Shown in pieces: positions 10,331 through 26,100 of a DNA stretch of 64,000 nt. The stretch comes from Bacilli bacterium (GTDB lineage Bacteria; Bacillota_I; Bacilli_A; ML615J-28; CAG-698). The translations under genes and the position numbers were made by a program. Location: positions 1,534 to 65,533 of the forward strand of contig JAFSVH010000101.1 in NCBI GenBank assembly GCA_017450215.1. The letters are read 5' to 3'. Each line of letters begins with the position of its first letter. Position 1 is the first letter of the stretch. The notes under the pieces were generated by a model that made no database searches, was not told the DNA's origin, and saw only the letters and a list, made by a program, of their open reading frames with translations.

Positions 10331-10405
10331 TGGAGCAGGTAACGAGAATCGAACTCGCATCTTCGCCATGGCAAGGCGGTATATTAGCCGTTGTACTATA
10401 CCTGC
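10331..10405 (-). tRNA. tRNA-Gly (anticodon GCC)
   Basis: Hand fold of the 75-nt minus-strand sequence. Acceptor stem GCAGGTA/TACCTGC, T-arm GCGAG-TTCGATT-CTCGT, anticodon loop TTGCCAT, 3' TCCA. The D-stem is weak (3 bp). Confidence 0.75.
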
Positions 10406-21590: not shown

Positions 21591-23240
21591 TTACATTCTT
21601 TCTTTAGTATTAACACCAATTAATCCTAAAGCATCTTTTAAGATTATTTGAACACTTCTTAAAACTGTTAGTTTTTCATTTGTAAGCAATGCATCATCAC
21701 TTATAATCTTTTCATTATTATAATAGCTATGTAAAGCTTTTGCTAAATCGCTAATATATTGACATAATCTATGAGGTATTCTCTTTAATGCTACCTCTTC
21801 AACAACGTTTCTATAAGCAATTAAGCAATCAATTAAATCTTTAATTGATGAAATATCTAACTTTTTAAATTCATTAACTTGCTTAAATTCTGGATAAGTT
21901 CTAAACAAACTTGCAATACGAGCATAAGCATATTGAGCATAATATACAGGATTCTCGCTTCCCTCTTTAAGTGCTAAATCAAGATCTAAGTCCATTTGAG
22001 ATGATAATGCTTTTTCAATGAATAAATATCTCAAAACATCACTGCCAACTTCATCAATCAAGTCACGCATTGTGATTGCTCTACCACTTCTTTTGCTCAT
22101 CTTGATTTCCACGTTATTTTGCATTACTCTAACCATTTGTAGTATTTCAACATCAAGCTTATCAGGATTACCACCAACAAAAGCAATAGCAGCTTTCAAT
22201 CTTGGAATATAACCATGATGGTCAGCACCTAATACATCAATTAATTGATCATAACCACGACTCAATTTATCAGCATGATAAGCAATATCTGGAGTTAGAT
22301 ATGTTAAAGAGCCATCGCTCTTTTTAATTACTCTATCCTTTTCATCACCATAAAGAGTAGTCTTAAGCCATAAAGCACCATCTTTTTCGTATGTATAATC
22401 ATGACTAATTAAATAATCAATTGTCTTTTCTACACTACCATTAGCATATAAGCTTCTTTCAGAACTCCACACATCAAATTCCACATTAAAATCTTTCAAA
22501 TCTTTTTTAAGTGTATTTAATAATTTTTCTGTTCCTATATTCCTAAAATCATCAAACCATTCTTCTTTAAGATATTTATCTTGATATTTTTCTTCAATTT
22601 CCTTAGCAATAACAATAATTTCAGGTCCTTTATAGCAATCATCATCAAGATCAAAATCTAAATTGTATAATTCACGATATCTAGCATAGATAGATTTTGC
22701 AAGATTATTAATTTGATTACCTGCATCATTAACATAATATTCTCTTGTTACATCATAACCAGTCTTTTTAAGAATTCTAGCAAGACTATCACCATAGGCA
22801 GCTCCTCTACAATGTCCAATATGTAAAAAGCCAGTAGGATTAGCACTAACATATTCAATGTTTACTTTTTCTTTATTTCCAATATTGCTCTTACTATAAT
22901 TTTCTCCTTCTTTATTAATCAAGAAAACAACATTAGCAAGATAATTATTATCAATAAAGAAATTAATAAATCCACCAACTACTTCTACTTTCTTCACATG
23001 AGCTTTATCAGTATCAATTTGACTAACAATATCAGTTGCAATCAAATTAGGTGCTTTTCTTGCAATTCTTGCAAGCTTAAAAGCAACATTAGTACTATAA
23101 TCACCATGATCCTTACTAGCAGGCACTTCAAAGAATACATCTTCTTCTGTAAAGTTAGAAGCATTCAAATTTGATGAATAAATATTTTGTACAATATTAA
23201 AAATTTGATTTTTCAATTCCTTAATAATAGTCTCAATCAT
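21591..23240 (-). CDS. argS: arginine--tRNA ligase
   Basis: HIGHCRGAAYGDSLARIL and DALR-type C-terminal domain. Confidence 0.95.
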   Translation of the reverse strand: MIETIIKELKNQIFNIVQNIYSSNLNASNFTEEDVFFEVPASKDHGDYSTNVAFKLARIARKAPNLIATDIVSQIDTDKAHVKKVEVVGGFINFFIDNNYLANVVFLINKEGENYSKSNIGNKEKVNIEYVSANPTGFLHIGHCRGAAYGDSLARILKKTGYDVTREYYVNDAGNQINNLAKSIYARYRELYNLDFDLDDDCYKGPEIIVIAKEIEEKYQDKYLKEEWFDDFRNIGTEKLLNTLKKDLKDFNVEFDVWSSERSLYANGSVEKTIDYLISHDYTYEKDGALWLKTTLYGDEKDRVIKKSDGSLTYLTPDIAYHADKLSRGYDQLIDVLGADHHGYIPRLKAAIAFVGGNPDKLDVEILQMVRVMQNNVEIKMSKRSGRAITMRDLIDEVGSDVLRYLFIEKALSSQMDLDLDLALKEGSENPVYYAQYAYARIASLFRTYPEFKQVNEFKKLDISSIKDLIDCLIAYRNVVEEVALKRIPHRLCQYISDLAKALHSYYNNEKIISDDALLTNEKLTVLRSVQIILKDALGLIGVNTKERM

Positions 23241-23268
23241 ATTAATAATATCCTTTCATATTAAACCA

Positions 23269-23296
23269 TTATACCATGTTTTCAAAAAATATGCAA
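23269..23296 (-). promoter_or_regulatory. argS-proximal promoter (TTGCAT-17-TGgTATAAT)
   Basis: Minus-strand TTGCATattttttgaaaacatggTATAAT with extended -10, about 30 nt upstream of the argS ATG. Confidence 0.45.
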
Positions 23297-23304
23297 TTTC
23301 TAAA

Positions 23305-23348
23305 ACAAAAAAACCTTTTAGACAAACCTAAGTTTAATTCTAAAAGGA
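23305..23348 (-). terminator. Rho-independent terminator upstream of argS
   Basis: Minus strand CCTTTTAG-(18 nt)-CTAAAAGG followed by TTTTTTT. Confidence 0.6.
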
Positions 23349-23546
23349 TTTAAAGAATTTATTATAATAGTATCCAGAAGACCGATAATACTGATGTGAA
23401 CCACAGTTCACCACGGTGGGTCTCTCTCTTGGTATAATTAAAGGATTCTTATCTAAAATAAGCTTTCAACAGCATTATACCCTCAACACCCTAAATATCT
23501 ATTGTTCGGTTCGCATATTAAGTACAAACTCGAGAATTCCAGATAC
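23349..23546 (-). ncRNA. candidate ~240-nt structured small RNA or attenuator-type leader (class undetermined)
   Basis: Delimited by the consensus-like promoter at 23553-23581 and the terminator at 23305-23348. Contains hairpin GTGAAC-TGTG-GTTCAC. No ORF and no canonical T-box sequence found. Confidence 0.3.
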
Positions 23547-23552
23547 AATTAG

Positions 23553-23581
23553 ATTTTACAAACTTCTTTTTGATTAGTCAA
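23553..23581 (-). promoter_or_regulatory. sigma-A-type promoter TTGACT-17-TAAAAT driving the candidate sRNA/leader
   Basis: Minus-strand TTGACT (23581-23576), 17-nt spacer, TAAAAT (23558-23553). Confidence 0.45.
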
Positions 23582-23600
23582 GAGCAAATTATAAAGCTTT

Positions 23601-24881
23601 TTATTTATAATATCTATAACAATTTAGTGCATCTAAATATTTTTGTTCAACATTACTTCCATTAAAAGCAGCTTCATAAGCAATTCGCTCAAGTTCTGCT
23701 TGGAGTTCAGCACTAATTTCACTTCTTGTATCATCACCATGCCATGTAATATTAGGATTCTTAATATAATCATTATATGTATAATTAATACCAACAGGGC
23801 TTCTACCATAAATAGTAGCATAATGTACTAATGCAACTAAATAAGTGCCAATTGAATTAGGATGACTACCATCACTTGCTTTATTTAAGTCAATTGATTT
23901 ATGGTCTCTATACATATAATAAAATGCAGTTCCAGCTCTTGATACTTGAATGCCTAAGTCTGTTGCAATCCACTCATAGCTAGCACTTAATTTTTGATGC
24001 ATTTCATAATAATTCATATTTTGATAACCATTACGATAACTCCAAGTTTCATACATTATTACTGTACTACCTAAATCCTTAAAATAATTATATAAAATAT
24101 TTGTAGTATAAAAGAAATCCGCTGTATCAGTAATAGGATTGTTGCTTTGTTCTTGCAAGAACACAATATCATATTTTGCATCTTTCATTGCTTTTTTGAA
24201 TGTTTCATAATATGTTCCATTATTACCTTCAATATAATTATGGAAATATTGTCCACCATAAGCAAACTTACTGATTTTGGCGTTTATTCCTTCACCTTCA
24301 AGAATGCAAGAAAGCAAATCAATTAAGCAATTATAATTTGTGAAAGAATTACCAATTAACAATATCTTTAAATCTTGCATTTTTTCTTCTTTCTTATTTA
24401 GTGCATTACCATATTCAGTATATTCAGTATTGCAATAATCACATAAGCAAATTCTTTGTTCACATGCTTCTTTTGTTCTTTCAATCACACGTAAAACACT
24501 ACCACTATGTAGATGATCTAATTTTTCTATCACTTCTTTACCTTCTATATAACCACATCTTTTACATTCATAATAATCAGTATAACCATCTTCTTCAAGA
24601 GTTGGATCTTTTCCTTTTACTAAATGTAAATAGTGATCTAATTTTTCTATTTCTTTATAATCTTCTTTATATCCACATATCTCACAAACATAATAGCCAT
24701 TATAACCATTTTCTGTACATGTTGCAGCTTTTCCTTTTACTTTTTCGAAAACATGGTCGCACTCTTCTACAGGCTCAGGTCCATCATCTGGTTTATTCTC
24801 ATTCTTTTCTTCACAGCAAGATAAAGTAAAAAGAAAAACAACTGAAAGAATTAAAAATAAAATATATTTTGCTTTTTTCAT
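23601..24881 (-). CDS. lipoprotein with duplicated Cys-rich (CxxC...CGY) zinc-ribbon-like modules and a C-terminal SGNH/GDSL-like hydrolase domain
   Basis: Signal peptide with lipobox LSCC. Two repeats H..E.GY..YY.C..CGY..E...IEKLDH. ILLIGNSFT resembles SGNH block I. Confidence 0.5.
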   Translation of the reverse strand: MKKAKYILFLILSVVFLFTLSCCEEKNENKPDDGPEPVEECDHVFEKVKGKAATCTENGYNGYYVCEICGYKEDYKEIEKLDHYLHLVKGKDPTLEEDGYTDYYECKRCGYIEGKEVIEKLDHLHSGSVLRVIERTKEACEQRICLCDYCNTEYTEYGNALNKKEEKMQDLKILLIGNSFTNYNCLIDLLSCILEGEGINAKISKFAYGGQYFHNYIEGNNGTYYETFKKAMKDAKYDIVFLQEQSNNPITDTADFFYTTNILYNYFKDLGSTVIMYETWSYRNGYQNMNYYEMHQKLSASYEWIATDLGIQVSRAGTAFYYMYRDHKSIDLNKASDGSHPNSIGTYLVALVHYATIYGRSPVGINYTYNDYIKNPNITWHGDDTRSEISAELQAELERIAYEAAFNGSNVEQKYLDALNCYRYYK

Positions 24882-25140: not shown

Positions 25141-26100
25141 ATGAATGATAGACTAAGAACAAACGAAACTTTACCCGATTTTGTTTCTACTCAGCATAAT
25201 TATCATACATTAGATTATTATTTTAAAAAGAAATACAATTCTAAAGTATTTAAAGTTGCCTTGAATGGTGACTTTTCTTGTCCGAACAGAGATGGCACTA
25301 TCTCTAAAGATGGTTGCATCTTTTGTAGTGACAAGGGAAGCGGAGAATTTGCTGGAGATAAACAAGATCCATTAAAAATTCAATTTAATAAAATTAAGGA
25401 CATAATTCATCTTAAATGGAAGGATGCTTTATACATTGCCTATTTCCAAGCAAATACTAACACTTATGCACCTTTATCAAAATTAAAGCGATTATTTGAA
25501 GAAGCAATTAATCTTGATAAAAACATTGTGGCAATTGACATTGCAACTAGACCAGATTGCTTATCAAGTGAATGCTTAGATTTTTTAGCTGAATTAAACA
25601 CTAGATGTAAAGTAATAGTCGAACTAGGACTACAAACCATCCACGAAGAAACAGCAATATTAATAAATCGTGGTTATAATTTAAATTGCTTTACTGAAGC
25701 AGTAAAGAAATTAAGGGAAAGAAAAATTGAAGTAATTGTCCATATTATTAATGGATTACCTCATGAAAGCTATGAAATGATGCTAGAGACTGCCTCATTC
25801 TTAGCTCATCAAGATATCCAAGGAATTAAGATTCATTCTTTATATATATTAGAAGGAACAAAAATTGCTTCAATGTATAAAAGCAATGAATTTAAGGTGC
25901 AAACTTTAGATGAATATGTGAAAACTGTGGCAAATCAACTTACTCTTTTAAGAGAAGATATTGTAATCCACAGAATAAATGGAGACCCACCAAAAGAGGC
26001 TCACATAGCCCCTGATTGGTGCTTAAAAAAGTTCGTTATTATGAACGAAATTGATAAATATATGAAGAAAAACGGACTCGTTCAGGGAGCACGTTTTTAG
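25141..26100 (+). CDS. radical SAM protein, TIGR01212 (YhcC-like) family
   Basis: FSCPNRDGTISKDGCIFC cysteine motif characteristic of this family. Confidence 0.8.
   Translation: MNDRLRTNETLPDFVSTQHNYHTLDYYFKKKYNSKVFKVALNGDFSCPNRDGTISKDGCIFCSDKGSGEFAGDKQDPLKIQFNKIKDIIHLKWKDALYIAYFQANTNTYAPLSKLKRLFEEAINLDKNIVAIDIATRPDCLSSECLDFLAELNTRCKVIVELGLQTIHEETAILINRGYNLNCFTEAVKKLRERKIEVIVHIINGLPHESYEMMLETASFLAHQDIQGIKIHSLYILEGTKIASMYKSNEFKVQTLDEYVKTVANQLTLLREDIVIHRINGDPPKEAHIAPDWCLKKFVIMNEIDKYMKKNGLVQGARF

Follow-up and report, generated by a model that had tools for sequence, protein, structure and literature searches.

The window analysed here, a stretch of 64,000 nucleotides of Bacilli DNA, carries between a putative lipoprotein gene and argS an intergenic region that has the signals of a transcription unit of its own. 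An earlier note on this DNA had left two readings of that unit, either a divergent attenuator acting on argS or a separate small RNA about as long as 6S RNA. The question is which of the two this locus encodes. The comparisons described below uphold the small RNA, as a 6S RNA, and not the attenuator.

The promoter-terminator unit upstream of argS

The features of the region are compiled in Table 1. Each of the signals described in the earlier note was located on the minus strand: the near-consensus promoter TTGACT-17-TAAAAT (23581-23553; 10 of the 12 consensus positions match in our promoter scan), a strong terminator with U7 just before argS (23347-23307), the separate argS promoter TTGCAT-17-TGgTATAAT (23296-23268), the hairpin GTGAAC-TGTG-GTTCAC (23411-23396) and the AGAGAGAGA tract (23429-23421). 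As RNA, the terminator hairpin reads CCUUUUAG...CUAAAAGG; it encloses an AAAC/GUUU helix and is formed in the minimum free energy (MFE) fold of 23548-23300; it is absent from the output of the scan tool because its loop is longer than 8 nt. The terminator ends about 65-66 nt before the start of argS. The ~240 nt given for the unit correspond to the primary transcript, from promoter to terminator, while the conserved 6S body is only 182 nt long. According to the ORF list, no minus-strand ORF of at least 30 aa lies within the unit.

Table 1. Positions in the window of the 6S RNA unit, its structural parts and the flanking genes
Feature	Positions	Strand	Evidence or remark
6S promoter, -35 TTGACT	23581-23576	(-)	Sequence and promoter scan; TTGAC[A/T] equally spaced in nearly all homologues
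6S promoter, -10 TAAAAT	23558-23553	(-)	17-nt spacer to -35; sequence, scan, homologues
Predicted transcription start	~23550-23546	(-)	RF00013 match begins at 23548, 5 nt past -10
6S/SsrS RNA body, 182 nt	23548-23367	(-)	RF00013, model R1, covariation
Closing stem, 5' strand, RNA 3-28	23546-23521	(-)	Rfam-derived structure plus helix 24-28/157-161
Helix P2, 5' strand, RNA 33-41, AUGCGAACC	23516-23508	(-)	Rfam alignment; borders central bubble on closing-stem side
Central bubble, 5' strand, RNA 42-57, 16 nt	23507-23492	(-)	Unpaired in Rfam consensus
Apical (terminal) stem-loop, RNA 58-131	23491-23418	(-)	Helices 4-8 of the pair count; RNAalifold
AGAGAGAGA tract	23429-23421	(-)	In apical stem-loop, 3' strand
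Central bubble, 3' strand, RNA 132-146, 15 nt	23417-23403	(-)	Unpaired in Rfam consensus
Alternative hairpin GUGAAC-UGUG-GUUCAC, RNA 138-153	23411-23396	(-)	Sequence; equivalents in homologues
Helix P2, 3' strand, RNA 147-155, GGUUCACAU	23402-23394	(-)	Rfam alignment, pair counts
Closing stem, 3' strand, RNA 157-180	23392-23369	(-)	Rfam-derived structure, pair counts
Intrinsic terminator hairpin, CCTTTTAG (23347-23340)/CTAAAAGG (23321-23314)	23347-23314	(-)	Sequence and MFE fold
Terminator T7/U7	23313-23307	(-)	Sequence
argS promoter, TTGCAT (23296-23291), 17 nt, TGg-TATAAT (23276-23268)	23296-23268	(-)	Sequence; outside the 6S unit
argS CDS	23240-21591	(-)	ATG at 23240; ORF list; ArgS Pfam domains
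Upstream 426-aa "lipoprotein" gene	24881-23601	(-)	Stop codon 20 nt before the 6S promoter

The promoter alone is not beyond chance, because such hexamer pairs are common in DNA of 22-33% GC: the scan of this region returned 8 promoter-like hexamer pairs, against 6.3 +/- 2.5 in shuffled sequences. The product of the upstream gene (23601-24881, minus strand) has a signal peptide with the lipobox LTLSCC and four CxxC...CxxC repeats, and it contains a DUF4886 domain (PF16227, 36 bits).

Match to the 6S RNA family

The whole window was scanned with Rfam at gathering thresholds, which yielded two matches, a 6S RNA and one tRNA. The 6S match (RF00013) covers 23548-23367 on the minus strand and the entire model, positions 1-187 of 187. 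Its score of 48.5 bits (E = 1.2e-6 for the 64-kb window) is above the gathering score of 46.4, albeit by only 2 bits, which agrees with the idea of a distinct, 6S-like small RNA. Motifs typical of the family are correctly placed: CCGAAC lies in the 5' bubble strand, AGAG..CCACC precedes the 3' bubble strand, and the apical stem contains GAAUCC. The tRNA gene, at 10334-10405 (minus strand), is the sole other match above threshold in the window. A hit to the Legionella LPR10 RNA, which overlaps the apical part of the 6S RNA, was discarded as noise (22.7 bits against a gathering score of 69).

The Rfam comparison proposed in the earlier note thus returned 6S (RF00013) and not the T-box (RF00230). 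With permissive filters, neither the T-box nor any other cis-regulatory family in Rfam gave a match at E <= 1 within 23150-23700, and the absence of a T-box consensus noticed before is borne out. The T-box model itself is shown to work by the 106 bits that it assigns to a T-box leader in one of the fetched loci (L024:1708-1919, minus strand). In its match to the model and its covarying stems the window RNA conforms to RF00013. It departs from a T-box leader both in the missing match to that model and in its position, since argS has a promoter of its own downstream of the terminator.

6S RNA homologues in related metagenome contigs

Relatives were sought through ArgS, and the contigs encoding them were collected by exact-protein look-up. 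Homologues with 60-84% identity to ArgS came from metagenome contigs, together with a few MAGs labelled Acholeplasmataceae or Bacilli bacterium, and a scan of GTDB species representatives with ArgS found only relatives of at most 41% identity, with no 6S RNA nearby. In four relatives a 6S RNA lies directly upstream of argS (62-84% ArgS identity; Rfam scores of 37.5-58 bits): L006/L007 (84% identity, 58 bits), L010 (75%, 44.3 bits), L020 (62%, 57.8 bits) and L017-19 (64%, 37.5 bits). In L016 the 6S RNA (41.5 bits) is located one gene farther upstream of argS.

A scan of metagenomes for the invariant core motifs TGCGAACCGNACA...GAATCC...CCACC detected 25 loci. We also built a covariance model, R1, from the window RNA and L006 with the Rfam-derived structure. 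R1 matched 23 places, being 22 related metagenome loci and the window, which represent 19 distinct sequences. These matches include 17 of the 25 pattern loci, and in addition L011, in which the Rfam scan had found nothing; the 8 pattern loci lacking an R1 match were dropped as chance matches. When 10 of the pattern loci were scanned with Rfam, all except L038 (40.8 bits) scored above threshold, at 51.7-67.9 bits. Overall, 11 of the 15 distinct homologues scanned exceed the Rfam threshold (range 37.5-67.9 bits), and L010, L016, L017 and L038 are below the gathering score (37.5-44.3 bits). Routine annotation would miss these, as several 6S RNAs of the clade lie under the Rfam threshold; the alignment and model R1 would recover them.

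The RNAs at L017:2218-2421 (also L018 and L019) and L038:4334-4536 carry an extra hairpin of ~22 nt in the 3' strand of the closing stem, which in L017 is GGUGCCAAAAGCACC; their 6S scores, 37.5 (L017) and 40.8 (L038), are both below threshold.

In nearly all homologues the motif TTGAC[A/T]-17-TA[T/A]AAT ends 5-8 nt before the 5' end of the RNA, and a hairpin followed by a U-tract is present 15-70 nt past its 3' end. It is the RF00013 match, the promoter and terminator conserved in the homologues, and the structural covariation that go beyond chance.

Secondary structure and covariation

Mapped onto the window RNA, the Rfam consensus gives a rod made up of a closing stem, helix P2, a central bubble of 16 + 15 nt and an apical stem-loop. 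The alignment that had been suggested as a check for covariation provided it: among the 19 distinct sequences, 26 of 47 pairs show compensatory changes on both sides. Standard pairs occupy 94.3% of the cells, as opposed to 36.7-47.0% when the partners are slid by 1-3 columns, in an alignment that was fitted to model R1 and so favours the structure in these pair counts. The covariation score is 0.403, controls do not exceed 0.11, and none of 500 shuffles reached any of the observed measures. In helices 1 and 2, which form the closing stem, 12 of 19 pairs have both-side changes and 91-96% of the cells are paired; in the apical helix 6, compensatory changes affect 7 of 8 pairs. Helix 3 (P2) is paired in 94% of the cells and mostly invariant, with one covarying pair (AU/UA), so that covariation neither supports nor refutes P2. 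Between the window and its nearest relative, L006, three double compensatory changes fall within one 8-bp helix of the apical stem-loop. The 5' bubble strand GCGAACCGAACA is nearly invariant across the clade, and CCACC, directly before the 3' bubble strand, is invariant.

RNAalifold, applied to this alignment, independently arrives at the closing and apical stems and keeps the centre unpaired. Alignments made with MAFFT and folded with RNAalifold did not align the apical stem correctly and yielded only part of the structure, and they were replaced by the covariance model. Single-sequence folding is not diagnostic, with MFE z-scores of -1.7 for the RNA strand and -2.5 for the opposite strand. 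The MFE of the window RNA is -45.2 kcal/mol, compared with -34.8 for the canonical fold, and the two differ in the centre: single-sequence MFE folds fill the central bubble with local hairpins, whereas the consensus fold leaves it open.

In both alignments, RNAalifold also draws a short local hairpin, UCG(N)/(N)CGA (23533-23511, minus strand; RNA 16-19 with 35-38), in competition with the inner closing stem and with P2. Its sequence hardly varies, the changes being one-sided (C-G to U-G) and uncompensated, and this hairpin may represent a third alternative state or be an artefact.

The lack of an open central bubble in thermodynamic predictions, and the score of the window RNA near the Rfam threshold, could be taken to mean that this is a structured small RNA of another function, acting by base-pairing or binding polymerase in some other way, which resembles 6S RNA in length and rod shape only and does not sequester the holoenzyme. 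However, the match spans the whole 6S model with the family motifs in their proper places, most homologues score well over the threshold (up to 67.9 bits), and the region of the predicted product-RNA start equals the template in Bacillus subtilis 6S-1 over 7 nt. We consider an RNA of another function highly unlikely.

The comparison with homologues also bears on the coding capacity of the locus. A reading frame of 53 aa does exist in the ORF list on the plus strand (23416-23577), but it has a GTG start, runs antisense to the conserved promoter-RNA-terminator unit and crosses the 6S promoter. In the closest homologue, L006, two indels inside the span of this ORF, one of 1 nt and one of 2 nt and separated by 68 nt, shift the frame between them, for which reason we reject this ORF, and the substitutions track base-pairing, not codon positions. 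The probability that the locus is a small protein gene is negligible.

From these data we conclude with high confidence that the promoter-terminator unit is the ssrS (6S RNA) gene of an uncultured, low-GC, Acholeplasmataceae-like member of the Bacilli from ruminant gut metagenomes. The family match, the covarying structure, the conservation of promoter and terminator, a competing hairpin that is likewise conserved and the independence from argS, the last two of which are presented below, support this directly.

Genomic context and independence from argS

In some Firmicutes argS is controlled by a T-box. The element immediately precedes argS on the same strand, a terminator forms its end, and its linkage to argS recurs in several relatives, all of which could fit a cis-acting leader, either a divergent T-box or another riboregulator, whose terminator controls read-through into argS. 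Against this, besides the empty T-box and cis-regulatory search (E <= 1, 23150-23700), the unit ends in a full terminator, the argS promoter sits between that terminator and the ATG, and an antiterminator competing with the terminator hairpin was not observed. Moreover, the downstream gene is argS only in a subset of the homologues. In seven loci (L030, L044, L021, L035, L039, L024 and L025) an unrelated or convergent gene follows the 6S RNA, and in L011 and L016 another gene intervenes between 6S RNA and argS; the other downstream genes include an ABC transporter gene, a transposase-like gene, a B12-binding-domain-like gene and a convergent gene. As the downstream gene varies, the element is not an argS attenuator, and a leader of this kind is extremely improbable. 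Being ssrS, the intergenic unit does not call for a new argS regulator.

The most constant neighbour of the 6S RNA, more so than argS, is a divergent radical SAM gene (PF04055 and PF16199, Radical_SAM_C; 25141-26100, plus strand, in the window). It lies 0.1-1.7 kb upstream of the 6S RNA, and equivalents are present in L010, L011, L017, L020, L021, L025, L030, L039, L044 and others.

Other RNA elements were seen in the fetched loci besides the T-box leader of L024, namely a purine riboswitch (L001:6355-6452, minus strand, 50.9 bits) and a SAM riboswitch preceding a SAM synthetase gene (L017:6387-6489, plus strand, 53.8 bits). A 58-nt palindrome just past argS in L008 (3709-3766) and L009 (2464-2521) is weakly matched by a microRNA model in either orientation (33 and 29 bits, gathering score 97); most probably the palindrome is a terminator hairpin acting in both directions and not a real match to the microRNA family.

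Predicted product RNA and a hairpin that competes with P2

By resembling an open promoter, 6S RNA, a widespread small RNA, sequesters the housekeeping holoenzyme; it serves as template for product RNAs (pRNAs), whose extension refolds the RNA and frees the enzyme (PMC8876501, PMC8414754). The pRNA of B. subtilis 6S-1, 5'-GUUCGGUCAAAACUA, begins with GUUCGGU (PMC12005410) and starts at C40 (PMC8876501). Hallmarks of Firmicutes 6S RNAs are a GG at positions 5/6 of the pRNA and an A adjoining the start site (PMC8414754).

The 5' bubble strand of the window RNA contains the heptamer ACCGAAC, invariant in the clade, from which in B. subtilis 6S-1 the opening 7 nt of the pRNA are copied (PMC12005410). 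By analogy, pRNA synthesis probably starts at C45, corresponding to 23504. The pRNA predicted from 23504 on the plus strand is 5'-GUUCGGUUCGCAUAU, opening with GUUCGGUUCG; with GG at positions 5/6 and an A adjoining the start site it carries both hallmarks, and AA is absent from 9/10.

The hairpin GUGAAC-UGUG-GUUCAC uses the 3' strand of P2 as its 3' arm, and hairpin and P2 are consequently mutually exclusive. An equivalent hairpin was found in all 19 distinct homologues, and it covaries, GUGAAC/GUUCAC being replaced by GUGAAA/UUUCAC and variants. When RNA positions 32-45 were blocked, mimicking a bound pRNA, the MFE structure consisted of the rod plus the competing hairpin for 17 of the 19 sequences. 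In unconstrained MFE folds the competing hairpin is already formed in 13 of 19, which implies that the two states are close in energy. GUGAAC-UGUG-GUUCAC is probably a release hairpin that forms upon synthesis of the product RNA.

Discussion

The window 6S RNA is an unannotated member of a well-known family, and its kind and mechanism are textbook. A literature search combining 6S RNA with Mollicutes or Acholeplasma retrieved nothing relevant.

The closest known counterpart is B. subtilis 6S-1 (BsrA), of the Firmicutes type. Both are rods of ~180-190 nt with a closing stem, an apical stem and a central bubble, the last of these being present in the window RNA in the mapping of the Rfam consensus; both have their own sigma-A-type promoter and intrinsic terminator as well as a full-length match to the model, and ACCGAAC is identical to the product-RNA start, giving a pRNA of the form 5'-GUUCGGU.... 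The GG at pRNA positions 5/6 and the adjacent A are likewise found in lactic acid bacteria and in B. subtilis (PMC8414754, PMC12005410). Beyond the first 7 nt the pRNAs differ (UCGCAUAU in the window, CAAAACUA in B. subtilis 6S-1), the window pRNA having no AA at 9/10. The two RNAs also differ around the bubble. In the window RNA the hairpin of the 3' bubble strand shares 6 nt with the 3' strand of P2 and so competes with P2. Free B. subtilis 6S-1, by contrast, has a small hairpin inside its bubble, and its release is helped by a 'central bubble collapse helix' (PMC8876501). As to neighbouring genes, the window 6S RNA is accompanied by a radical SAM gene and argS, and that of lactic acid bacteria by rarA/uspA.

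[quoted passage not shown] The GUGAAC/GUUCAC hairpin has this same topology, unlike B. subtilis 6S-1 (PMC8876501), with 6 bp in the window RNA (5-8 in relatives) compared with 9 bp in E. coli; its function here is a prediction. The window RNA differs from E. coli 6S RNA in the Bacillus type of its predicted pRNA start and in its host, a relative of low-GC Bacilli. Like a T-box leader, it is positioned ahead of a gene for an aminoacyl-tRNA synthetase, with a terminator hairpin preceding that gene; it differs in lacking a model match, a T-box sequence and an antiterminator, in the separate promoter of argS, and in that the 6S element also occurs with no synthetase gene downstream.

We infer from family membership and from these features that the window RNA is expressed, binds polymerase and is released as follows. 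The sigma-A-type promoter (23581-23553, minus strand) would start a transcript of ~240 nt that the terminator (23347-23307) would end. Both 6S RNAs of B. subtilis are trimmed by 3' exonucleases (PMC10578484), and by analogy the 3' tail of ~60 nt, which includes the terminator, would probably be removed in the same way. As known for the family, the rod would mimic an open promoter and sit in the active site of the housekeeping holoenzyme of RNA polymerase, damping sigma-A-dependent transcription under nutrient scarcity. During outgrowth, the polymerase would use the 5' bubble strand as template, probably from C45 (23504), and make the product RNA. Extension of the pRNA from C45 toward the 5' end of the RNA would melt P2, the freed GGUUCAC could then pair with GUGAAC to form the hairpin, and the refolded RNA would leave the polymerase.

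We tentatively suggest, at a little less than even confidence, that 6S RNAs of this clade unite a Bacillus 6S-1-type pRNA start (GUUCGGU...) with a covarying release hairpin of the E. coli type that competes with P2. If this is true, the two release strategies are not bound to lineage, and these short, AT-rich 6S RNAs would be a compact system, provided by nature, in which to study the ejection of RNA polymerase by refolding.

The significance of the finding is mostly the annotation of the intergenic unit upstream of argS. Synteny with the divergent radical SAM gene, and often with argS too, can guide the search for 6S RNA in related genomes. The conserved, covarying hairpin in competition with P2 leads to a prediction, open to testing, of how release works in a Bacilli lineage with reduced genomes.
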